DNA of 64,000 nucleotides, taken from assembly GCA_018817165.1 (NCBI GenBank), contig JAHITY010000062.1, positions 26,958 to 90,957 of the forward strand. The letters run 5' to 3'. Positions 3,771 through 47,449 of the stretch are shown here, piece after piece. The stretch comes from Candidatus Omnitrophota bacterium (GTDB lineage Bacteria > Omnitrophota > Gorgyraeia > B26-G9). Within the stretch, counting starts at the first letter, position 1. Each line of letters opens with the position of its first letter. A program made the position numbers and the translations under genes. The notes beneath the pieces are model-generated. The model was not told the origin of the DNA, did not search any database, and saw only the letters and a list, made by a program, of their open reading frames with translations.

Positions 3771-6548
3771 ATGAAAATAATTATGAATAGAAAAGGAACG
3801 ATTCTTGTCGCGACTTATATGGTCTTATGCGTAATCATTGTTGTTGCCAGCTCTTTTTTTTCCATGGTGCTTACGGATAATAAAGCAGTTACCAGAAGTA
3901 ATGATGGAGCAAGAGCTTTGTCAAACGCGGAAAGAGGTATAGCTTATGCTTATTTTGAAGCCTATAATCTTGGCTGGGATTGGAAAACCCATGATTGGCA
4001 TAATGCTGCGCATAAAGTTGAACTTAAGGTAGTGCCTCCAGGCCAGCAGCTTAAAACCCGGCCGGATTGTGATTTTAATGCTGATGGTTTTTTTGTGCAT
4101 GATTCAGGTGATTTCATGATAAAAGCATATCCTGATATGACTCGGGAAAATGATACTGTAGTTGTTTCCATGGGGATTTGCGGCAAAGAGACTAAAGTAT
4201 TAATGTATTATTTAACCCGCAGGGGAATATATGATTTTTTTCTCTATACTCCGTATAATTTAGATCTTTATGCTGCTGTGGGCAATCATCCTGACTTGAA
4301 TGGCGGCGGGATTCATTCAAATGGCGATATTCATATTGATAGCGCGATGCGCCTTGAGGATATTTCTGAATTAAGTACCGGAGAAACCGGCAGAATTTAT
4401 TATGAAGGCAATCAATATATTCCACCTTATTACGCGGATCGTTTGGATGGAATTATGGATGGAAAATCCCCGATAACTAGGTTGGATAGATTGGGTGATG
4501 TATTTCGCGATGACCTTAAATTAGAAACGGGCCCTTTTGGTTATTATAATGCTTATGGTCAATGGAATTGGGATAGCGGAGCAACTTATTTTGTAAATAC
4601 ATCTATTGGTCTGCAAAATTCTTTTCAAAGCACTGAGGGGCATTTTGCCGGTTCAATATTAGATGTTTATAATGTTGCTCCAGGCAAGACGAATATTGTT
4701 AAAAATGACAGCACGGATACATTAAATTCGCAAAATTGTTGGATAAAACCATATATTCTTGATGCGGATGGTAATAAAGTTGCTACAACTTGGACGGAAA
4801 TCCCTGCGGAAATGGATACGCAATGGGAATGGGATAAATACGGTTGGAATAAATATGGCACAGTTGCCGGAGAACAGCCGGTCAGCTTTTATACCTATAA
4901 AGATGATGGAACTAGTGTGGGGGTTGCGAACACGTATTGGGAAATAAATGCCAGTAATAAAGTTGAAATGCTTGATCCGCCAATCGGCGGGACTCCGGAA
5001 CAGTGGGCGGCTTTTAATGCGGCGCATCCTAGCGCAAAGCAGTATTGGGATATGTATTCTACCCCGGAATTTTGGAATGCAACCTATGGCAATTCATCGC
5101 GTGAATACTATGCAGAGATGATCAATCCTGAAGTGCTTGATGGGACTTATGGGGATGAACGCTTAAATAATGATAGTATAATGGTTAATCATACTGATTC
5201 CTTAAAACAACCGAATGATTGGAAAAGTTTTCTTACTAAGTCAGGCTTAGATAATATCGTAAGAGATGGGAATACCGGCGGTGAGTATCTGTCACCGCCT
5301 GATTTTGATCAAACCTACTCCCGCTTAGCAGCGACTGATGGATTATTGCTCGATTTAGATTCTAGTTTTGATGGTGATTATGATGATTATGCTGAATGGC
5401 AGGCTGTGTTGGAAAAAAGTATTGATGCTGCGGTGGATAATCTGAATAAAGATACTAAACATAATGATGTGGCAAAAAAAGTTAAATTCATTAATACTTT
5501 TACCGGTGAATGGAATGTTGTTTTGGAAATTGATTTTGAGAATATGCAAAAAGAAAGCAAGTATCCGAAGAATGGGATTTTGTACACTCGCGTGCCGGTG
5601 AGAATTACCAATGCGGCCAAACTTGCTAGAGCAAAGCCCAAATACGGATTCACTATTTTAGGCGAAGAAAATGTCTATTTAAAAGGGGATTATAATACGG
5701 ATCAATGGGTAACCAGCGCGATTATTTCCAAAAAACGGATATTTACTTTATCGGATGATTTTAATGATCCCCAGGTTAAGCCGGCTTTGGAGCATTATCC
5801 TGACTATCCTTATATTTATGTTAAAAATGATGGCAGTGATAATTATGCCGAAGTTGCCAAAGGAACTGTGGGCGGACAATGGGTAATATTAGATTATTTG
5901 GATGCTGATGGATCAATTGATAAAATTGATTATTATCCGACAATTGATGATGTCAATGAAGCCAATTTGCGGGCAACAATTCTAAACAAAGAAGCGGATT
6001 ATCGCAGTGTGTTTAATAAGGATGATCCCACTGGTGCAGCAGAATCTACCTGGGTCTGGAGCGGAACCGGAGAAAGCTATACTTCCGGGATGATGCCGAA
6101 TAAAGTGCTAAATGATACAACTTATAATGCTTTGATGGCATCTAATCGCTGGTTAGAGTCGTATCAAAGTAATAAGGGGGATATTCTGGAAAATTGGTAT
6201 TATAATGACGGAACAAAAAATATTTCCAAAAAACGTAATTTAAACGGAGCTTTTTTTGTTTTAGAAAATGCGTCAGCCGGCGGTTTTGCCGCGGCAAATA
6301 ATGAATTTGTTGATTATCGCAATGAATCCGGGCTGGGGTATGATCAAAGAGGCCGTTCCCCGGGAACCGGCGATAATTATTCTTATAATCGGGGTTCTTT
6401 TCTGCGGACTTATGATGCGGCGGAATCTATTTCTTATGATGAACAGTTTAGAACTGCTACCAGAGCGCCTTCAGATGTGTTTTTTGGCGGGGCTGAGTCT
6501 TTATGGGCAGAATCAACAGAAGAGTTTTTCTATCAGATGAAATTTTAA
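3771..6548 (+). CDS. Large PilX-N-terminal-domain protein, candidate PilY1-like pilus tip/adhesin
   Basis: N-terminus MNRKGTILVATYMVLCVIIVVASSFFSMVLTDNK resembles a PilX_N helix. 925 aa, rich in W/Y/D/N/G (beta-rich). Sits in the minor-pilin operon where pilX/pilY1 normally sit. Confidence 0.5.
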   Translation: MKIIMNRKGTILVATYMVLCVIIVVASSFFSMVLTDNKAVTRSNDGARALSNAERGIAYAYFEAYNLGWDWKTHDWHNAAHKVELKVVPPGQQLKTRPDCDFNADGFFVHDSGDFMIKAYPDMTRENDTVVVSMGICGKETKVLMYYLTRRGIYDFFLYTPYNLDLYAAVGNHPDLNGGGIHSNGDIHIDSAMRLEDISELSTGETGRIYYEGNQYIPPYYADRLDGIMDGKSPITRLDRLGDVFRDDLKLETGPFGYYNAYGQWNWDSGATYFVNTSIGLQNSFQSTEGHFAGSILDVYNVAPGKTNIVKNDSTDTLNSQNCWIKPYILDADGNKVATTWTEIPAEMDTQWEWDKYGWNKYGTVAGEQPVSFYTYKDDGTSVGVANTYWEINASNKVEMLDPPIGGTPEQWAAFNAAHPSAKQYWDMYSTPEFWNATYGNSSREYYAEMINPEVLDGTYGDERLNNDSIMVNHTDSLKQPNDWKSFLTKSGLDNIVRDGNTGGEYLSPPDFDQTYSRLAATDGLLLDLDSSFDGDYDDYAEWQAVLEKSIDAAVDNLNKDTKHNDVAKKVKFINTFTGEWNVVLEIDFENMQKESKYPKNGILYTRVPVRITNAAKLARAKPKYGFTILGEENVYLKGDYNTDQWVTSAIISKKRIFTLSDDFNDPQVKPALEHYPDYPYIYVKNDGSDNYAEVAKGTVGGQWVILDYLDADGSIDKIDYYPTIDDVNEANLRATILNKEADYRSVFNKDDPTGAAESTWVWSGTGESYTSGMMPNKVLNDTTYNALMASNRWLESYQSNKGDILENWYYNDGTKNISKKRNLNGAFFVLENASAGGFAAANNEFVDYRNESGLGYDQRGRSPGTGDNYSYNRGSFLRTYDAAESISYDEQFRTATRAPSDVFFGGAESLWAESTEEFFYQMKF

Positions 6549-7005: not shown

Positions 7006-7063
7006 GCTGTTTAGATTATTAGGATAAGAGGGGTTGATTTAATTTATAGAGGAAGAACTGAGA

Positions 7064-8350
7064 TTGACTTTTTGTTCTTCCTCTTCTATAATAGGGGCAA
7101 TGCAAGTAGACAGAAATTCAATTTATTCAGTAATTTTTTTCCGATTTGCCATTGCCACAGTGATTTTTATTGTCAATACAACGCTTTTTGGCTTAGGGCG
7201 TATTCCGGTTTATTTTATAATTACCGCTATCTATGGTCTGACAATAATGTATTCCTTGCTGACTTTAGCAAATATCTTTAATCGGAAATTTCTTTATGTT
7301 CAGATTTTTCTTGATTTGATTATGGAAACATTATTGGTTCATTATACCGGAGGGGTTAATTCGGTATTGAGCATTTTGTTTCCCTTGTCGAGTATAGCGG
7401 CGAGTATTATAATTTCTCCGGCAGCGGCAATAATTATTGCTCTTTCAGGTAGTATTATGTATGCGGGCATAGTAACCTTGGAATCTTTGAATATTTTTTC
7501 TGTGCCTGCTCTGGGAGTAAACGCGCTGGTAACTCCCAGCGATTATGTTTTTTCTTTATTGTATTTTAGGGTTACAGTATTTATTGTGATCGGCTTTTTG
7601 AGTTCATACATTGCTGATCAGCTGAGAAAACAAAATAAAGTCGTTCTATCATTACAGGAGAAACTGCGCCGAGAAGACCGTTTGTCGGCTATCGGCAAAC
7701 TTGCGGCAAGTACAGCCCATGAGATCCGTAATCCATTGGCTTCAATATCCGGCTGTGTCGAGGCTTTAAAAGATACGATTTATTTAGAAGCAAAAGATAA
7801 AAAATTGTTTGATCTTATTTTAAAAGAAACAGCGCGTTTAAATGATATTATTAATGGTTTGCTTGAATATGTCAAACCGCGAAAACTTAAACTGGAAAAA
7901 ATATCAGTGGATGAGTTGATTGATGAAGTGGTATTTTTGCTTAAAAGCAGCAAGAAATTCAATCAAAATATAATTATAAAAAAAGAAAACTCTTTGCCTG
8001 AGGTAATGATTAGCTGTGATCCCCAGCAGATAAAGCAGGTTTTGTTTAATCTTTTGATTAATGCTGTGGAAGCCGTTGATAGTCAAGGGAAAATCATAAT
8101 CAAGCAGAATGTTAAGAAAGATATTAAGGGAATTGAATTAGATATAATTGATAATGGAATCGGCATGTCCAAAGAACAATTAGGTACTCTTTTTGAACCA
8201 TTTTCCAGTGGAAAGGATCAGGGGGTTGGTTTGGGGTTGCCGATAGTAAGTACAATTATAAAGGAACATGGCGGAACTATTAATATTCAAAGTGCTTTAG
8301 GTAAAGGGACGACATTTTCTATCTTTTTACCAGAAAAAATAAAGGAATAG
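7064..8350 (+). CDS. pilS: PilS-like sensor histidine kinase (polytopic membrane N-domain, HisKA, HATPase_c)
   Basis: About 6 TM segments; H-box AASTAHEIRNPLASISG; N/G boxes DNGIGMS...GLGLPIV. Probable TTG start at 7064 (ATG at 7100 is an alternative). Confidence 0.8.
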   Translation: MTFCSSSSIIGAMQVDRNSIYSVIFFRFAIATVIFIVNTTLFGLGRIPVYFIITAIYGLTIMYSLLTLANIFNRKFLYVQIFLDLIMETLLVHYTGGVNSVLSILFPLSSIAASIIISPAAAIIIALSGSIMYAGIVTLESLNIFSVPALGVNALVTPSDYVFSLLYFRVTVFIVIGFLSSYIADQLRKQNKVVLSLQEKLRREDRLSAIGKLAASTAHEIRNPLASISGCVEALKDTIYLEAKDKKLFDLILKETARLNDIINGLLEYVKPRKLKLEKISVDELIDEVVFLLKSSKKFNQNIIIKKENSLPEVMISCDPQQIKQVLFNLLINAVEAVDSQGKIIIKQNVKKDIKGIELDIIDNGIGMSKEQLGTLFEPFSSGKDQGVGLGLPIVSTIIKEHGGTINIQSALGKGTTFSIFLPEKIKE

Positions 8351-9711: not shown

Positions 9712-9803
9712 GTAGGGGCGCTGCTTGCCTGCGCCCGGTTATCAATAATTTTGATATATGATAATTGTATATTATTTTGGGTCGAGACAAGCACGGCCCC
9801 TAC
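9712..9803 (+). promoter_or_regulatory. GC-rich nested inverted repeats immediately downstream of pilR (candidate PilR upstream-activating site or RNA structure)
   Basis: GTAGGGGC (9712-9719) pairs with GCCCCTAC (9796-9803), enclosing hairpin GGGCGC-tgcttgcct-GCGCCC (9716-9736) and an AT-rich stretch. About 200 nt upstream of the sigma-54 promoter. Confidence 0.3.
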
Positions 9804-10008
9804 ATTGTGAATAGGTGTCCCTATATCTTCTGCTAAACGCTGCGTTCCTGTTTTTAGGAAAAAGTTTTCATATTCTGGAAAAAAATTTCTAAGTTTATTT
9901 TTTGCTTAATTTTTGTCCCCAAATTCAGTAATAAAAATCTAAATCTTAAGTGCTTGCATTTAAACGAGTTAATTGATATTTCAAAAAAATAAAAAAATAA
10001 AATTATCT

Positions 10009-26546: not shown

Positions 26547-27560
26547 ATGATTATAGTTCTTAAGCCGCATACGTCAAAAGAAGATAAGGATAAAATACTG
26601 GATAAAATCCATTCGCTTGGTTTGAAAACTTTGGTTTCCGAGGGAGTTGAACGTTCGATAATCGGGATCATTGGAGAAGAAGATATTATTCGCATGCAGC
26701 CTTTAGAAGCCTATCATGGAGTGGAAAGTGTTATTCCTGTGTTGGCGCCTTATAAGCTTGTTTCTCGAGAATTTAAACCGGAAAACAGTATTATTAAAAT
26801 TAAAGACCAGGAAATCGGCAGTCAGAGAATAAGTATAATGGCCGGTCCTTGCGCTATTGAAAATTATGATTCACTGCGGGCGATTGCTCGAGTAGTTAAA
26901 CAAAAAGGGGCAACGATATTAAGAGGCGGCGCGTTCAAACCGAGAACTTCACCATATTCTTTTCAGGGCTTAGGCGAAGAAGGCTTAAAAATAATGAAAC
27001 AGGTTTGTGATGAGTTTGGGCTGCTGAGTGTTACGGAAATTATGGATCCGCGTGACATGCCTTTGATGCACAAATATGTGGACATTATTCAGATCGGGGC
27101 AAGAAATATGCAGAATTTTAATTTGCTCAAAGAAGTGGGTAAATCAAAAATTCCGGTTTTGCTCAAACGAGGAATGATGTCGACAATAAATGAGTTTTTA
27201 ATGAGCGCGGAATATATATTAAGCGAAGGTAATTTTAATGTTATTCTCTGTGAAAGAGGAATTAGAACGTTCGAGACTTATACCCGTAACACTTTGGATA
27301 TCAATGCTGTGCCGGTGATAAAAAAACTTTCCCATCTGCCGATAATTGTTGACCCCAGTCATGCTACAGGAAAGTGGGAATTAGTTATTCCGGCAAGCCT
27401 TGCTTCTATTGCGGCTGGTGCTGATGGGTTAATCATTGAAGTGCATACTAATCCGGAAATTGCCGCTTCTGATGGGTCTCAGACCTTGAACCCGAAAAAT
27501 TTTGAAAAATTAGTTAAAGAAGTCAGCGCAATAGCAAATGCAGTTGGCCGAAAAATTTAA
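26547..27560 (+). CDS. aroF: DAHP synthase, class I-beta with N-terminal regulatory domain
   Basis: N-terminal ferredoxin-like domain plus a KDO8P/DAHP synthase core (AGPCAIE, KPRTSPYSFQG, DPSH). Confidence 0.85.
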   Translation: MIIVLKPHTSKEDKDKILDKIHSLGLKTLVSEGVERSIIGIIGEEDIIRMQPLEAYHGVESVIPVLAPYKLVSREFKPENSIIKIKDQEIGSQRISIMAGPCAIENYDSLRAIARVVKQKGATILRGGAFKPRTSPYSFQGLGEEGLKIMKQVCDEFGLLSVTEIMDPRDMPLMHKYVDIIQIGARNMQNFNLLKEVGKSKIPVLLKRGMMSTINEFLMSAEYILSEGNFNVILCERGIRTFETYTRNTLDINAVPVIKKLSHLPIIVDPSHATGKWELVIPASLASIAAGADGLIIEVHTNPEIAASDGSQTLNPKNFEKLVKEVSAIANAVGRKI

Positions 27561-27580
27561 AAACACAAAAAGATTAGCTT

Positions 27581-28426
27581 ATGAAAATAAAATTTAAAAA
27601 TGTAGTGATTGTTGGCCCGGGATTGATCGGCGGCTCAATCGGCTTGGTTTTACGCAAGCAAAAAATGGCGGAAAATATTATCGGAGTTGCCCGCCATAAA
27701 GCTACTTTGCTTAAGGCTAAGAAAAAAGAATCAATTATAACCGGAGTTACTGATTTAAAAAAAGCGGTGGCTGATGCTGATTTAGTTGTGTTGGCAACGC
27801 CGGTTATGACGATTAAAGGGATTCTTAGCAGTATTAGTCATTTGCTGAAAAAAGATTGTATTGTTATGGATGTAGGGAGTACAAAGGCAGAGATTGTGGC
27901 TTACGCGGAAAACGTTTTGCCGGATAATGTTTATTTTATTGGAACCCATCCCATGGCTGGTTCGGAAAAAGCCGGAGCCGAATTTGCTTCCGATGCATTA
28001 TTTGATGATTCAATATGTTTTATTACAAAAAATTCTAAATCTAATCGAGCAGCTTTGACAGTAGTAACAAATCTTTGGAAAATGCTCGGCGCAAGAACGG
28101 TGTTGATCGATCCTAAACAGCATGATGATATTGTGGCACAGATAAGTCACTTGCCGCATTTAGTTAGTGTTGCTTTGGTTGATTCTATTAGTTCGGGATT
28201 TTTTAAATTCGCCGCATCCGGGTTTAAAGATACTACCCGGATTGCCGCGGGTGATCCGCAAATTTGGCGGGATATATCTTTTAGCAATAAAGAAGCGATT
28301 TTAAACGCGATTGCTAATTTTGAGAAAAAACTGGCTTTAATTAAAAAAGCAATTAAAAACAATCAAAAACAAATTCTTGTTCGACAGCTAATAAATGTCA
28401 AAAGAAAAAGAGATTCTTTAAAGTGA
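27581..28426 (+). CDS. tyrA: Prephenate dehydrogenase
   Basis: Rossmann motif VIVGPGLIGGSIG and the THPMAGSEKAG catalytic region. Confidence 0.8.
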   Translation: MKIKFKNVVIVGPGLIGGSIGLVLRKQKMAENIIGVARHKATLLKAKKKESIITGVTDLKKAVADADLVVLATPVMTIKGILSSISHLLKKDCIVMDVGSTKAEIVAYAENVLPDNVYFIGTHPMAGSEKAGAEFASDALFDDSICFITKNSKSNRAALTVVTNLWKMLGARTVLIDPKQHDDIVAQISHLPHLVSVALVDSISSGFFKFAASGFKDTTRIAAGDPQIWRDISFSNKEAILNAIANFEKKLALIKKAIKNNQKQILVRQLINVKRKRDSLK

Positions 28427-28444
28427 GAGTATAATAGGATAGTT

Positions 28445-29113
28445 ATGATTATTGCTGTTGACGGACCTGCCGGTGCTGGAAAAAGTACAATTGCCAAATT
28501 GCTGGCTGAGAAATTAGGATTTCTATATGTTGATACCGGGGCTATGTATAGGGCTCTGACGCTAAAAGCGGACAATCAAAATATGGATTTTTCTGATATT
28601 CCGGGTTTGGTTAAAATGGCAGAAAAAACAAAAATTGTTTTAGAAAAAAATAAAAAGGGTAAAACAATTGTTTTTTTGGATGGATTTGATGTGAGTGACG
28701 CGATTCGCGAGCCAATTATCACCAATGCTGTTTATAAATTAGCGCGTTTAGCGGAAATACGCCAGATTATGGTATCTTGGCAGCGTGATTATGGAAAAAA
28801 ACACAGTATTGTTATGGAAGGCCGAGATATTGGTACAGTAGTTTTTCCTAAGGCTGAGATAAAATTTTATCTTGATGCTACTGCTGAAATTAGAGCAAAA
28901 CGCCGGATGATTGAGTTAAAAGAAAAAGAAATTGATATTTTACTCGAGGAACTTATTAAACAAATTGAAGAGCGTGATCATAAAGATAAAACTAGAAAAT
29001 GCGGGCCATTAAAAATTGATGATGATGCAATTTATATTGATTCATCTGCTTTGGATATCCCGCAAGTGGTGGATACAATGCTTAATTACTTAAAGGATTA
29101 TAATGAAAAATAG
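28445..29113 (+). CDS. cmk: Cytidylate kinase
   Basis: IIAVDGPAGAGKSTIAKLLAEKLGFLYVDTGAMYRA. Confidence 0.9.
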   Translation: MIIAVDGPAGAGKSTIAKLLAEKLGFLYVDTGAMYRALTLKADNQNMDFSDIPGLVKMAEKTKIVLEKNKKGKTIVFLDGFDVSDAIREPIITNAVYKLARLAEIRQIMVSWQRDYGKKHSIVMEGRDIGTVVFPKAEIKFYLDATAEIRAKRRMIELKEKEIDILLEELIKQIEERDHKDKTRKCGPLKIDDDAIYIDSSALDIPQVVDTMLNYLKDYNEK

Positions 29114-29735
29114 TTTTTATTTGTTCTGTAGATTTCTCCTTTTTTTAAAATTAAAGGTATTGTTTTTTTTTAAAGTTAAGGGCAGAGGTTTTGTTCCCAA
29201 GAGGGGCGGATGCATAATCGCTTCTAATCACTTGAGTTATTTAGATCCGATTGTTCTCGCGGTGGCTAGTCCCCGAATTCTCAGTTTTATGGCCAAAAAG
29301 GAGCTGTTTAGTCAGCATGGTAATTTTTTTAAATGGTTAATAACTGCTTTGAATGCTTTTCCTTTGGAACGAGGTACTGCGGATTTAAAGGCAATCCGGT
29401 TTGCTATAAATAAATTAAAAAATGGTCATTGCTTGATTGTTTTTCCCGAAGGTACGCGCAGTAAATCAGGAGAAGTAAAGGATCCGCAATCCGGCGTAAG
29501 CATGTTGGCGGCTAAAGCTAATGTCCCAGTAATTCCGGCTTTTATTACTGGTTCAGATAAGGCTTTACCTGCTGAATCTAAAAAAATCGCTTTTTTTACC
29601 CCAATGAGTGTGCGTTTTGGTCCTGCGCTTACATTTAAGCCAGATCCCAGCCGAAATGATATAAAAGCTGATTATCAAATATTTTCCAATCAGATTATCG
29701 AGCAGATCAGGCTTTTAGAGGATTTTGAAAAGTAG
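29103..29735 (+). CDS. plsC: 1-acyl-sn-glycerol-3-phosphate acyltransferase
   Basis: NHLSYLDP (HX4D) and FPEGTRS motifs. Confidence 0.8.
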   Translation: MKNSFYLFCRFLLFLKLKVLFFFKVKGRGFVPKRGGCIIASNHLSYLDPIVLAVASPRILSFMAKKELFSQHGNFFKWLITALNAFPLERGTADLKAIRFAINKLKNGHCLIVFPEGTRSKSGEVKDPQSGVSMLAAKANVPVIPAFITGSDKALPAESKKIAFFTPMSVRFGPALTFKPDPSRNDIKADYQIFSNQIIEQIRLLEDFEK

Positions 29736-29850
29736 AAATTGAATCCTGTTTATATTGTATATGTTTTCTTAAAAATAGCTTGAAAACAATATACATATTT
29801 GTTATACTCTACAGAACCAAATATAAAATAAAGAAGGAGGTTGTAATGAA

Positions 29851-31578
29851 ATGTCTAGAAAAAAGAAGAAGTTTGCCAGTTTCGAAGAATTAGAAGAAAG
29901 AAAGGATAGTGTATTTGCCAAAGAATTTGAGGCTTTTTACGCTAAAGGAGTTACTACGCTTGCCGAGGGTGAAATAATCCAGGGTAGGATCGTAGGGATA
30001 ACCGGAAAAGAGGTGTTAGTCGATATCGGTTATAAATCCGAAGGGATTCTTGCTTTAGAAGAATTTGATGATCCATCTGAGGTGCAAATTGATGCTGAAA
30101 TCAATGTTCTTTTAGAGAAAAAAGAAGATGAAAATGGTATGGTTATTGTCTCTAAGCGTAAAGCTGATCGTTCTCTCGGGTGGGAGCGAATTATAAATAA
30201 TTATAATGAAGGCGATAATATCGAAGGCAGAGTCTCGAGAAAAGTTAAAGGTGGATTAATGGTGGACATTGGTCTGGATGCTTTTTTACCTGCTTCTCAA
30301 ATATCATTAAGAGGTGCTAAAAATATTGATCAGTATATTGGCAATACTTATGAGTTTATGATTGTTAAAGTCAATAAGCCAAGAAAAAATATTGTTCTTT
30401 CCCGTAGAGAATTATTGCTTAAGGAAAGAGAAGTAAATAGAGATAAACTGCTTAAAGAAATTGAAGTCGGGCAGGTTAGAACCGGACTAGTTAAAAATAT
30501 CGCTGATTTTGGTGTGTTTATTGATTTAGGCGGGGTTGATGGTTTGCTGCATATTACTGATATGAGTTGGGGGCGGATCAGCCATCCTTCAGAAATGGTA
30601 GCGATCGGAGATAATATTGATGTTAAAATCCTGGGAATTGATAAGGAATCAAATAAAATCAGTTTAGGGTTAAAGCAAAAAAGCTCAAGCCCATGGGTCG
30701 GGATTGAAGAAAAATATCCAGCAGGCAGTAAATTAAAAGGTAAGGTTGTGAATTTAGTTCCTTATGGTGCGTTTATTGAACTGGAAAAAGGGGTTGAGGG
30801 TTTAATTCATATTTCTGAATTTTCCTGGACACGCCGGATAAGTCACCCATCAGAAATGTTGGCAATTGGCGATATGGTGGAAGCGGTTGTGCTGAACCTT
30901 GATATTGCGAATCAGAAAATTGCTTTAGGTATTAAGCAGACTGAATCAGATCCTTGGAAAGGGATAAGCGATAAATATCCAGCGGGAGCAAAAGTAAAAG
31001 GTAAAGTTAGAAACTTGACTGATTATGGCGCTTTTGTTGAATTGGAAGAAGGTATTGATGGTTTGATTCATATTTCGGATATGTCTTGGACTAAGAAGAT
31101 AAACAATCCTTCGGAATTTCTGAAAAAAGGTCAAAAGCTGGAAGTGGTTGTGGTAAGTGTTGATGAAGTTAATCACAAGATCTCACTGGGATTAAAACAG
31201 CTTACGGTTGATCCATGGACATCGTTAGTTGAGAAATATCAAATTGATACTCAGGTCGAAGGGACAATTACAAAAATAACTACTTTTGGGATTTTTGTAG
31301 AGATTGATACTGAGCTTGAAGGATTAGTTCATGTTACTGAAATTGTGCTTGATCCGTCAATGAAAGTTGAAGACTGTTTTAAAGTCGGAGACATGGTTAA
31401 AGCCAAAGTAATTAAAGTTGATAATGAACAAAGAAAAATTGGTCTTACTATGAAAGATGAACCATATCAAGGTGAGACTAAGGCTGAAACTAAAGCTAAG
31501 GTTGAGGTTGAAACTAAACCTGAGGTTGAAGCTGAGTTTGAAGAAGCGGCTGAGATTGAAAACGAAGAAGAGGCTTAA
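29851..31578 (+). CDS. rpsA: 30S ribosomal protein S1 (six S1 domains, acidic tail)
   Basis: Repeated S1 motifs (GxV...G.FV.L..G..GL.H.S....); AAGGAGG RBS; sigma70-like promoter TTGAAA-17-TATACT at about 29779-29807. Confidence 0.9.
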   Translation: MSRKKKKFASFEELEERKDSVFAKEFEAFYAKGVTTLAEGEIIQGRIVGITGKEVLVDIGYKSEGILALEEFDDPSEVQIDAEINVLLEKKEDENGMVIVSKRKADRSLGWERIINNYNEGDNIEGRVSRKVKGGLMVDIGLDAFLPASQISLRGAKNIDQYIGNTYEFMIVKVNKPRKNIVLSRRELLLKEREVNRDKLLKEIEVGQVRTGLVKNIADFGVFIDLGGVDGLLHITDMSWGRISHPSEMVAIGDNIDVKILGIDKESNKISLGLKQKSSSPWVGIEEKYPAGSKLKGKVVNLVPYGAFIELEKGVEGLIHISEFSWTRRISHPSEMLAIGDMVEAVVLNLDIANQKIALGIKQTESDPWKGISDKYPAGAKVKGKVRNLTDYGAFVELEEGIDGLIHISDMSWTKKINNPSEFLKKGQKLEVVVVSVDEVNHKISLGLKQLTVDPWTSLVEKYQIDTQVEGTITKITTFGIFVEIDTELEGLVHVTEIVLDPSMKVEDCFKVGDMVKAKVIKVDNEQRKIGLTMKDEPYQGETKAETKAKVEVETKPEVEAEFEEAAEIENEEEA

Positions 31579-31617
31579 GCTTTATTCTTAGTTGGATTTA
31601 AAACAGATAAACAAAAA

Positions 31618-31650
31618 GGCGAGCAGCAAAACTGCTCGCCTTTTTTTTAT
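31618..31650 (+). terminator. Strong intrinsic terminator after rpsA
   Basis: GGCGAGCAG-caaaa-CTGCTCGCC followed by TTTTTTTTATT. Confidence 0.8.
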
Positions 31651-31693
31651 TAAACTTTTTCATTCAATTAGAATTTTAAAAGTAACTTGGCTA

Positions 31694-31910
31694 CAAGATG
31701 CAGGTGAATTTTTAAGCTTTTCACAAATTTAGGTAAATACGTGTTGTATTTTTGGGGACCCGTTAGGGCACGAGGACCTGTTTGAGCTTATTCATTTAAA
31801 TTTAAGGGCGAGTTCCGCAGTGCCAGAAATACAGCGCGGATTTGCCGATCTTGATGTTTAAATCAAGAAAATTTGTGACTTGCGTAAAATTTGTCTGCAT
31901 CTTGTATACC
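31694..31910 (+). repeat. Structured ~215-nt intergenic element, copy A (paralog of 46108-46320); candidate ncRNA or MITE
   Basis: Terminal inverted repeat CAAGATGCAG...CTGCATCTTG. Internal hairpins AATAC-gtgtt-GTATT, CTTGAT-gtttaa-ATCAAG and GGGCAC...GTGCC, plus long-range pairing CACAAATTT/AAATTTGTG. More than 80% identical to copy B, with compensatory substitutions in several stems. Confidence 0.6.
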
Positions 31911-32544
31911 CCGTAAGTTGCTTTACAGGCAAAAACACATCTTTTCGCTAAGCCTGAGCCTGCATCGTGCAGGCCCAGCCGCGCGTTCTCTCTAAGGATT
32001 CCGAAAATATCTGCTAGGTCTCAGATATTTCGGACTAAATTCGAGCAGGCTGACTTGACCTCGCTAACACTCCGTAAGTCAGGCTCTCATTTAAAGCGCC
32101 GCTCAAAGAGAATTTTTGCCTATCGAGATTTTAACTTTATGAACTTTATAAGTTGATGACTGTTTTAGCTTTGTAACTCATAACTAATCATTCATAACTT
32201 CATGTTTGTGATTTTGTAGCCAACTTGTCGAAGTCGGTCCGGAATCAATCATTTCTGCTCATTCTCGTCCCGCATCGTGCGGGACTCCGAGGATGAATCT
32301 CTGATTTTGCCAGTCCTATCAAAATCAGGCTTCAAACCCGCTAAAATGATTATTCCTGCCCTCTACACAGCGTTTAGTTATTTAGCAGCTTGTATTTTTT
32401 TTTGCGCAATACGCAATACTCAATACGCTTTTGTCCTTGTGTAAATCATCTCAAGCTTGACTGTACGCAAGTGCTGCTATATTATATTAATGAGGTTTAG
32501 TGGATATTAAAAAAAATACGCTAAAAGAAAGAAAAGGGGGGATT

Positions 32545-33054
32545 TTGAGGAAATATATAAATTGTTTGATTTTTGGTTTAATCATTGGCTTGTTTAATTT
32601 TAATGCTTTTGCATTTGAGCTTGCTTCTGAGTTTGTTGATTCAGAATACGGCTATTCTATAAAGTATCCTTTGGATTGGTATTCAAAAATCAATCGCTCG
32701 GGTATGGTGCTGGCTGATATCAATACTAAAGATAATAAATCGGGTTTACAGATCAGAGTTACTCAGAGCAATCAGTCAATCGATGATTATGTGTTACGAT
32801 ACATTGATAAGTTTAAGCAGGATATGCAGGCGCAGTTAACCAATCAAGAATATATGCTGATTGATAATAAAAAAGCTTACAAAATAAGTTTTCAAGCTAA
32901 TCGCCGAGGCAAGGATTATTTGCTGTTAAGTTATATTATGGCTGATGATCAAACAGCCAGAGTTTTTATTTTTCAAGCAGGAGTTCTTTATGATCAAAGA
33001 TATGAAATTATTCCTGTGCTTGATGCAATTGCCGGTTCTTTTGAACTGAAATAG
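32545..33054 (+). CDS. Hypothetical secreted protein (possibly PsbP/DUF1795-like fold)
   Basis: The ORF opens at 32500 (GTG). A G-rich RBS (GGGGGG) followed by TTG at 32545 gives a clean signal peptide MRKYINCLIFGLIIGLFNFNAFA. Confidence 0.45.
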   Translation: MRKYINCLIFGLIIGLFNFNAFAFELASEFVDSEYGYSIKYPLDWYSKINRSGMVLADINTKDNKSGLQIRVTQSNQSIDDYVLRYIDKFKQDMQAQLTNQEYMLIDNKKAYKISFQANRRGKDYLLLSYIMADDQTARVFIFQAGVLYDQRYEIIPVLDAIAGSFELK

Positions 33055-44927: not shown

Positions 44928-45967
44928 TGCAGATAAATGAATTTGACTATCATCTTCCGACAAAGCTTATTGCCCAGTATCCCGCCGAGCAGCGTGATCA
45001 ATCCCGACTTTTAATTGTGAATCGCAAAACTAATAAAATCACTCACAGTATGTTTAAAGATATTAGCAATATGTTTGAGCCGGGTGATGCTTTGGTTTTA
45101 AATGATACTAAAGTAAAGCCAGTGCGATTGATTGGAAAAATTCAGGAAAAAGAAATTGATATTCTCCTGGTTGAACGCCTAGAAAAAAATAAGTACTTGG
45201 TTTTTGCTAAACCCGGAAAAAAATTAAAAGATAAAATAAACATCAGCTTTGCTGATGGGCAATATACAGCGATTGTCGAGGATATAGAGCCAGCTAGAGA
45301 AAAAGGGATGAAGTGTATTAAGTTTCAGCTAGAGTTTGATATTGAAGCTGTTTTAGAAGAATTTGGAATGATGCCTTTGCCTCCATATATTAAACGCTGT
45401 GTAATGAATGCGGATAGTGCGAGATATCAAACTGTATATGCGAAAAATTCCGGAGCAATCGCTTCGCCAACTGCTGGGCTGCATTTCACTCAGGGAATAT
45501 TAGACCAGCTGCATAAGAAAAAGATAAATACAATCTATGTTACTTTGCATGTGGGACTGGGAACTTTTTTACCAGTTAAAGTGGATGATATTGAACAGCA
45601 TCAGATGCACAAAGAAGCTTATGACTTGACAAATTCAGCGGCGCAGGAAATTGAGGCGGTTAAAAAAGCAAAACATCGGATTTGCGCTGTGGGCACAACC
45701 GCCTGCCGCGTTTTGGAAAGCTGTGCTAATATTGATAATGGCTTTTCTATTGCCGCGGCAAAAGGCTCAACAGAAATTTTTATTTATCCGCCGTATAAGT
45801 TTAAAGCCGTTGATATGCTATTAACTAATTTTCATTTACCAAAAACAACTTTGCTGATGCTGATCAGTGCTTTTGCCGGTAAAGATCTGATCATGGAAGC
45901 CTATCGGCAGGCAGTAGAGCAGGAATATCGGTTTTTTAGCTATGGCGATGCCATGTTGATTATTTAG
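44927..45967 (+). CDS. queA: S-adenosylmethionine:tRNA ribosyltransferase-isomerase QueA
   Basis: FDYHLP..LIAQYP...R..SRLL N-terminus and the GTTxxR region; start overlaps the queH stop (TAATG). Confidence 0.9.
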   Translation: MQINEFDYHLPTKLIAQYPAEQRDQSRLLIVNRKTNKITHSMFKDISNMFEPGDALVLNDTKVKPVRLIGKIQEKEIDILLVERLEKNKYLVFAKPGKKLKDKINISFADGQYTAIVEDIEPAREKGMKCIKFQLEFDIEAVLEEFGMMPLPPYIKRCVMNADSARYQTVYAKNSGAIASPTAGLHFTQGILDQLHKKKINTIYVTLHVGLGTFLPVKVDDIEQHQMHKEAYDLTNSAAQEIEAVKKAKHRICAVGTTACRVLESCANIDNGFSIAAAKGSTEIFIYPPYKFKAVDMLLTNFHLPKTTLLMLISAFAGKDLIMEAYRQAVEQEYRFFSYGDAMLII

Positions 45968-46107
45968 CGTATAGCGATTAGCGGATAGCGGTTAGGAGAA
46001 ATAGAAGACATCAAACCGAGGGATGAGGGACGATCGCTACGCTAGGAAGATGGACGATAAAGCAGAAAAAGACATTAGGTCTCATGGGGCCCTACGTCAT
46101 CAGGTTA

Positions 46108-47449
<1,342 letters not shown>

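Follow-up and report, generated by a model that had tools for sequence, protein, structure and literature searches.

The analysis concerned the long, hairpin-rich gap downstream of rpsA in an uncultivated member of the Omnitrophota. In the window, by which we mean the whole stretch of 64,000 nt of DNA that was analyzed, rpsA is located at 29851-31578 (stop at 31578), and the next gene, located at 32545-33054 on the plus strand, encodes a PsbP-like protein (Pfam PsbP, E 2.9e-6; signal-peptide-like N-terminus). The original prediction, made from the sequence alone, had placed one or more structured RNAs, rather than junk, between these genes. Conserved folds with covariation were indeed found there, but they belong to dispersed repeats and not to a single or unique RNA gene. 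We consider it likely that short, dispersed repeats without coding function, which populate the intergenic DNA of a narrow Omnitrophota clade, have piled up locally to form the spacer, in which case the hairpins that had been noticed would be intrinsic stems of the repeat units.

The S1 protein of the window was identical to a protein of an NCBI MAG, and its nearest relatives were all from Omnitrophota. The gap between rpsA and the PsbP-like gene measured 966 nt without a credible ORF, in good agreement with the earlier estimate of about 965 nt. Inside the gap only ORFs of 30-55 aa were present, the longest of them 55, 46 and 36 aa, and none of the six small ORFs of the gap had a match in Pfam. 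As far as can be read from its sequence, the hairpin-rich stretch is not a decayed gene. The terminator scan located the intrinsic terminator of rpsA at 31613-31645; with an A-run on one side of the stem and a T-run on the other, it scored on both strands, and it was kept in the related contigs L083 and L085. At the other end of the gap, the start codon of the PsbP-like gene is most likely the TTG at 32545, which gives a protein of 169 aa and matches the 169-aa orthologue in L083.

The GC content of 45-48% that had been attributed to the spacer was found in its two repeat modules (0.487 at 31928-32121 and 0.481 at 32237-32360) but not in 31911-32544 overall, which had 0.409 against 0.369 for the window; the linker between the modules had 0.288 and the stretch at 32366-32499 had 0.351. 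Reading of the sequence showed that all four predicted hairpins were present, within 1-2 nt of where they had been placed: the hairpin CCTGCATCGTGCAGG at 31959-31973, the hairpin CCCGCATCGTGCGGG at 32269-32283, a 13-bp stem, interrupted by a single bulge, at 32000-32034, and the stem CTGATTTTG/CAAAATCAG formed by 32301-32309 and 32320-32328. Folding of 31650-32500, an 851-nt stretch that takes in the neighboring element A (see below), gave an MFE of -267 kcal/mol on the plus strand, with z = -11.9 relative to shuffled sequences, and z = -6.7 on the minus strand. When the parts were folded on the minus strand, z was -4.85 for 31928-32121 and -4.60 for 32237-32360, with 0 of 200 shuffles equally stable in either case. 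The linker at 32122-32236 had z = -0.21.

The known RNAs that were searched for did not account for these folds. ARAGORN found no tRNA or tmRNA, as had been judged by eye. The models of Rfam 15, which covered riboswitches, ribozymes, 6S, RNase P, SRP, tmRNA, OLE, GOLLD, ROOL, raiA and others, gave no family in the spacer at the gathering score, and in the whole window they gave nothing but a c-di-GMP-I riboswitch at 2386-2549. When the threshold was relaxed to E<=10 for 31500-32650, the matches were confined to the rpsA terminator and its surroundings (31511-31785), apart from four weak ones to miRNA/snoRNA families with E values of 4-10 within 31725-32342. Copies of the modules described below (short B, A and F) from the metagenome contig L127 gave nothing at E<=1 except a 12-bit isrF match. 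Searches with the spacer by nhmmer and blastn against 80 rpsA loci of GTDB species revealed no homologue, viral contigs scanned for exact patterns (one core each from C, B and A) yielded no match, and neither did blastn against phage and plasmid collections.

The first of the two modules, B (31928-32121, minus strand), is the long form of a 124-nt repeat family, the ends of which were taken to be the termini GGCAAAAACAC...GAATTTTTGCC. It has the closing stem GGCAAAAA.../...TTTTTGCC and contains the first GCATCGTGC hairpin (31959-31973), and the window copy had an MFE of -73.8 on the minus strand versus -60.2 on the plus strand. A second long copy was found in L081, a contig of the same strain obtained via the exact S1 protein, where it lies between two fumarase genes at 7030-7225; it was 86-88% identical to the window copy, and the sequence of its 13-bp hairpin was wholly swapped with the pairing kept. 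Scanning of JGI contigs with a 19-nt core resulted in 35 metagenome loci, of which 27 were true copies and eight were chance pattern matches that were dropped (L096, L101, L103, L106, L110, L119, L124 and L125). About 20 of the 27 true copies came from one JGI metagenome, and almost all B copies were on metagenome contigs of closely related Omnitrophota. Distinct copies comprised 22 short ones (122-124 nt) and five long ones (193-196 nt; besides the window, L081 7030, L107, L116 and L121), at least 27 in total, a count that underestimates the breadth of the family because the search needed an exact 19-mer, and that exceeds the number of independent events, the copies being interrelated. With one doubtful exception (L102), the copies were located outside long ORFs. 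A covariance model, R1, was built from the reverse complement of 21 short B copies; it recovered all B copies at 89-152 bits, and the window copy matched the full model with 94.8 bits (E 3e-21).

Alignment of the long and short forms showed that a further module, F (31993-32094, minus strand), is nested in B. In the long form this module of ~100 nt replaces the AUUUUGACA...UGUCAAAAU hairpin of the short form, and the 13-bp stem at 32000-32034 belongs to it. F was also present alone at three loci (L105 11736-11837, L127 11864-11965 and L120 ~1779-1838), and it folded better in the antisense direction in all eight copies. The lone F of L127 is located directly upstream of the ribosome-binding site and ATG (11978) of an epimerase-like gene and is preceded by an extended -10-like TGGTATAAT; the ribosome-binding site contains GGAGAG, to which the CUCUC at the 3' end of F could be complementary in pairing.

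The second module, C (32237-32360, minus strand), holds the second GCATCGTGC hairpin (32269-32283) together with the CTGATTTTG/CAAAATCAG hairpin. Although no C copy was included in R1, all four C copies were matched over the full length of the model (the window, L081 5387-5510, L083 7746-7869 and L115 3826-3949), the window copy with 39.1 bits (E 9e-7, positions 1-124). As a model made from B only matched C over 124 positions, C is a diverged member of the B family. The two hairpins with the common GCAUCGUGC, which had been noticed as a covariation-like pattern, are therefore the homologous hairpin of two paralogues, and the covariation is real. The GCAUCGUGC loop itself is dispensable: the copy in L083 has UUCCU instead, and the copy in L115 has another stem and loop that still pair.

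The fold of the family consists of a closing stem and two hairpin arms. Terminal inverted repeats were present, as GGCAAAAA...TTTTTGCC and UCUCUU/AAGA(U)G constitute helix 1, which was 96-97% paired across copies. In an alignment of B copies only, 96.3% of the cells paired, and 10 pairs were changed on both sides compared to 2.8 in shuffles (0/500). When C was added, 94.7% of the cells paired and 27 of 47 pairs were changed on both sides, compared to 9.8 in shuffles (0/500) and with at most 47% pairing in slid controls; this alignment was fitted to the model, so that the pair counts are inflated and the structure is favoured. The reverse complement of B was the more stable strand in 21 of 22 copies, with a mean MFE of -50.8 versus -39.9, and cells with G.U outnumbered those with A.C by 43:7 for B and by 61:10 overall. 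Taken together with the strand preference of F, this folding asymmetry and the excess of G.U over A.C show that the structural constraint acts on one strand, which in the window is the minus strand, antisense to rpsA. An RNA read from the plus strand of B was rejected, the reverse complement being ~11 kcal/mol better in 21/22 copies. A long-range pairing of GAGCCUGC with GCAGGCU, suggested by RNAalifold for two long B copies on the plus strand, was likewise discarded, since none of the 22 short copies contains the partner segment and it is the local hairpin that covaries.

Taken as a whole, the spacer was not conserved at this position. In sister genomes with S1 proteins that are 92-95% identical to that of the window, the gaps downstream of rpsA measured 174 nt (L086), 278 nt (L085), 438 nt (L083) and ~1700 nt (L088), and the first three lacked B. 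B was absent from the rpsA site of L083, L085, L086 and L090 and present as the long form in the window. The part corresponding to window 31654-32232 was missing in L083/L084 (S1 95% identical), where C was kept, and L085 and L086 had neither B nor C. L088 had B there in its short form, together with a partial A, and had no C. Its ~1.7-kb spacer also contained a GC-rich hairpin region (7420-7540; ...GGCGGCGAACCCCGCAAATGCGGGGTGAAGTCGGAG...) followed by a T-run.

In 19 of 23 cases, a count that is based on crude ORF calls and non-independent copies, the gene located 3' of B was encoded by the opposite strand. The better-folding strand is thus usually preceded, at a distance of 30-250 nt, by a gene that runs in its own direction. 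In the window, B and C were antisense to all neighboring genes. Because of this orientation the window copies are probably passengers, which widened the rpsA gap from ~170-440 to 966 nt, and not regulators. A regulatory role for rpsA or the PsbP-like gene appears unlikely from the arrangement of the sequence, since B and C are antisense to their neighbors and the promoter block of the PsbP-like gene is located downstream of C.

The ends of the copies were inspected for traces of insertion. With boundary offsets of -4 to +4, no direct repeat of 3 bp or more was found in more than 4 of 25 copies, and the dinucleotides flanking B were heterogeneous. An upstream ...TT(T/G)ACA was present in only ~8 of 25 copies, and CGTC occurred only in copies with G at the variable position of ...CAC(A/G)TC.... 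In ~0.55 Mb of loci, wherever a 5' core had no 3' counterpart within 300 nt it was situated at a contig edge, and these loci contained no autonomous element with the ends of B.

These features place the family near several known kinds of repeat. ERIC, Correia, BIME and BOX elements have been described in bacteria (PMC3184786). ERIC is an imperfect palindrome of ~127 bp that is intergenic, is often found at gene 3' ends and can be co-transcribed, and ERIC-type repeats are flanked by TA duplications (PMC3184786). The B unit is similar in length (124 versus ~127 bp) and is likewise an imperfect palindrome with terminal inverted arms that is intergenic and often located at gene 3' ends. However, B has no sequence similarity to ERIC and no TA or other target duplication, forms a three-arm junction instead of one long hairpin, and belongs to Omnitrophota, not Enterobacteriaceae. 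Longer ERIC variants that carry internal insertions, and shorter forms with deletions, have also been reported. The Correia elements (NEMIS/CREE) of Neisseria are 100-160 bp long, dispersed, and have long and short forms as well as presence/absence among strains (PMC3184786). B resembles them in size, in having a long and a short form distinguished by an internal segment, in its dispersed intergenic location and in its presence or absence in relatives. Correia elements differ in that their terminal inverted repeats measure 26 bp and are accompanied by a TA duplication, and in that they carry promoters and IHF sites.

As in BIME and pneumococcal BOX elements, the repeats form mosaics of short modules in variable order and orientation (here A, B, F, C, D and E together with arrays). 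REP units are palindromes of 20-40 nt with a GTAG/CGTC tag that often occur as inverted doublets and are associated with a RAYT gene, whereas the units described here are 100-220 nt long and have multiple hairpins, B being 124 nt with three arms. Strand-specific hairpins, an orientation bias and the lack of a target duplication are shared with REPINs and IS200/IS605-derived repeats. The latter have subterminal hairpins, neither terminal inverted repeats nor target-site duplications, a target tetranucleotide and a TnpA (HUH) partner; B differs in that its termini are complementary, which the ends of IS200/IS605 are not. The family is best named ERIC/REP-like and not MITE; the latter label was withheld because no target duplication was found and an autonomous partner of B is at most putative. 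In a full-text literature search, no description of intergenic repeats of Omnitrophota was found. What is new are the phylum and the sequences, and the kind of object is the same as in ERIC, Correia, BIME and BOX elements.

The covariation on one strand and the orientation bias lead us to propose that the B/C units may function, or be propagated, in single-stranded form. This would most likely be as RNA that is co-transcribed at gene 3' ends, in the way that ERIC, REP and Correia elements shape the ends of mRNAs, and an alternative route would be a single-stranded DNA transposition intermediate. A reading that goes further, and which we regard as rather doubtful, is that B/C, F and A are undescribed strand-specific, structure-constrained elements that act as RNA or are partners of single-strand (HUH-type or RNA-guided) mobility. 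In the RNA version, they might form a lineage-specific system of modules, 3'-terminal or antisense, that works with a defined protein; as mobile DNA, they could possibly be the non-autonomous partners of a system that leaves no target duplication. The heptamer arrays described below could be insertion sites or by-products in either version.

It is still less probable that B, C and F are multi-copy functional small RNA genes, on the minus strand here, that were spread by gene duplication. The three-arm fold, the many compensatory changes and the excess of G.U on one strand would suit such genes, and so would the high identity of the copies (mean column identity, 95%) with hairpin tips that were swapped while their pairing was kept. 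At this locus a promoter-like site on the minus strand (32510-32481) and the bidirectional terminator (31645-31613) could even bracket a transcript, but promoter-like sites in the spacer were not above shuffles (2 versus 3.3 in the promoter scan). Moreover, no conserved promoter or terminator accompanied the copies, whose flanks differ, and copies were gained and lost between genomes with S1 proteins as close as 92-95% identity. The nesting of one module in another and the lack of an Rfam relative also argue against small RNA genes and for dispersed repeats.

The position of C directly upstream of the PsbP-like gene, both in the window and in L083, raises the alternative that C serves this gene in cis, as a regulatory leader or as an upstream element, and C was indeed better conserved between the two (92% identical) than the adjacent coding sequence (72%). 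This is very unlikely. The promoter scan detected the promoter-like site of the PsbP-like gene, TTGACT-17-TATTAT, at 32457-32485 on the plus strand, in a block (AAGCTTGAC...GCTGCTATATTATAT) that was conserved in L083 and L088. The site is located downstream of C, so C would lie outside that mRNA, and R1 matched C on the minus strand. Furthermore, C also occurred at unrelated loci (with RNase PH in L081/L095 and with a B copy in L115), and L088 had the PsbP-like gene and the promoter block but no C.

The remaining parts of the gap were assigned to further repeats and to the linker. Element A (31690-31912, plus strand) is a separate structured repeat family of ~220 nt, which was detected by self-comparison of the window (repeats D2/D3/D17). 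A second copy at 46103-46327 (plus strand), between queA and tgt, was 89% identical, ended ~20 nt before the start codon of tgt and had no spacer after it. Other copies were found in L127 (11300-11526 and 2250-2472) and L123 (3096-3314, minus strand). The fold of A is closed by a long stem; the core GGGGACCCGUUAGGGCACGAGGACCUGU...GGGCGAGUUCCGCAGUGCC is conserved, and the internal hairpins are interchangeable. Among five copies, 16 of the 78 predicted pairs were compensatory, and the MFE was -86.5 on the plus strand versus -63.7 on the minus strand. The AT-rich linker between B and C (32122-32236; GC 0.29) had no significant fold. Its first ~30 nt (TATCGAGATTTTAACTTTATGAAC...) were also present beside some other B copies, and BLAST of the linker showed 97% identity over 30 nt in L120 and 87-92% over 26-38 nt in L105, L108 and L109.

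Because A prefers the plus strand and B and C the minus strand, the modules are not parts of one RNA. That the whole 630-nt (or 850-nt) spacer forms one large structured non-coding RNA is highly improbable: the z of -11.9 for the 851-nt stretch and its lack of an ORF would fit, but the unstructured linker (z = -0.21) separates modules with different preferred strands, these modules were found separate and reordered elsewhere, and the syntenic spacer is missing in the sisters.

Short tandem arrays adjoin these modules. A degenerate heptamer array of the CTCATAA/TTCATAA type at 32173-32210, within the linker, was recognized by eye below the TRF score; arrays of this type were also present beside other B copies. 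TRF detected CGCAATA x 3.4 (period 7) at 32405-32428, a type that also flanks B copies in L112, L113 and L127, and a second array at 45964-45995 (period 7 x 4.6). The flanks of B varied from copy to copy and often contained degenerate arrays that repeat every 7-8 nt, with units such as GACTATC/GCCATTA, CTTGTGAC, CTCATAA, CAATACG and AGAACAG. In general, the intergenic DNA of the lineage was rich in short arrays with a period of 7-8 nt, of many unit families and often adjoining B/C. Heterocystous cyanobacteria carry heptanucleotide repeats, termed STRR. The intergenic tandem arrays with a period of 7 found here (32405-32428, 45964-45995 and more beside B) are similar to these, but differ in their unit sequences, come in many families, are short (3-5 units) and degenerate, and belong to another phylum. 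The CGTCC-rich repeat D, which also has a period of 7, was located upstream of the second A copy at 46000-46069 and recurred in either orientation near B (L081 7353-7422, inverted; L104, L117, L128 and L113). Repeat E, a ~90-nt hairpin with a GC-rich 19-bp stem (AGTAGGGGCGC...GCGGCCCCTACT), was found at 9712-9807, in L081 at 5517-5603 and in L117 at 5045-5141, with 75-81% identity.

The two contigs of the strain diverged at the end of C. The window and L081 were 99.9% identical over 26851-32362 and unrelated beyond, with the junction at 32362 in the window, at 5512 in L081 and at ~4876 in the JGI contig L095. C was followed by the PsbP-like gene in the window, and by repeat E and then RNase PH in L081 and L095. 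As the order of L081 was recovered independently in L095, the divergence at the 3' end of C would reflect either rearrangement at a repeat or a fork in the assembly there. Although the repeat could have caused one of the two joins to be misassembled, a decayed pseudogene or an assembly chimera is scarcely credible as the origin of the spacer, given small ORFs without Pfam matches, the nhmmer and blastn searches of 80 rpsA loci that found nothing, a window order that is syntenic with L083, an L081 order that recurs in L095, and repeat copies from many independent contigs and samples.

Recognition of the spacer as a pile-up of repeat modules keeps a large structured RNA gene from being annotated by mistake behind rpsA, and accounts for the breaks and conflicts that assemblies of this lineage show here. 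It adds modular, nestable repeat families that are constrained on one strand from an uncultivated phylum with small and otherwise tightly spaced genomes. With their strand-specific covariation, these families offer a test case for whether ERIC/REP-like repeats are kept for a role as RNA or for spreading.

Further features were recorded in the window outside the gap. The C-terminal tail of the S1 protein was coded by tandem repeats of 12-24 nt at 31481-31543 (low-complexity sequence of the KAETKAKVEVETKPEVEAE type), and its length varied among relatives, the S1 proteins being 535 to 579 aa long. The c-di-GMP-I riboswitch match, on the plus strand, scored 37.7 bits against a gathering threshold of 35 bits and carried an 81-nt insertion in its first hairpin.
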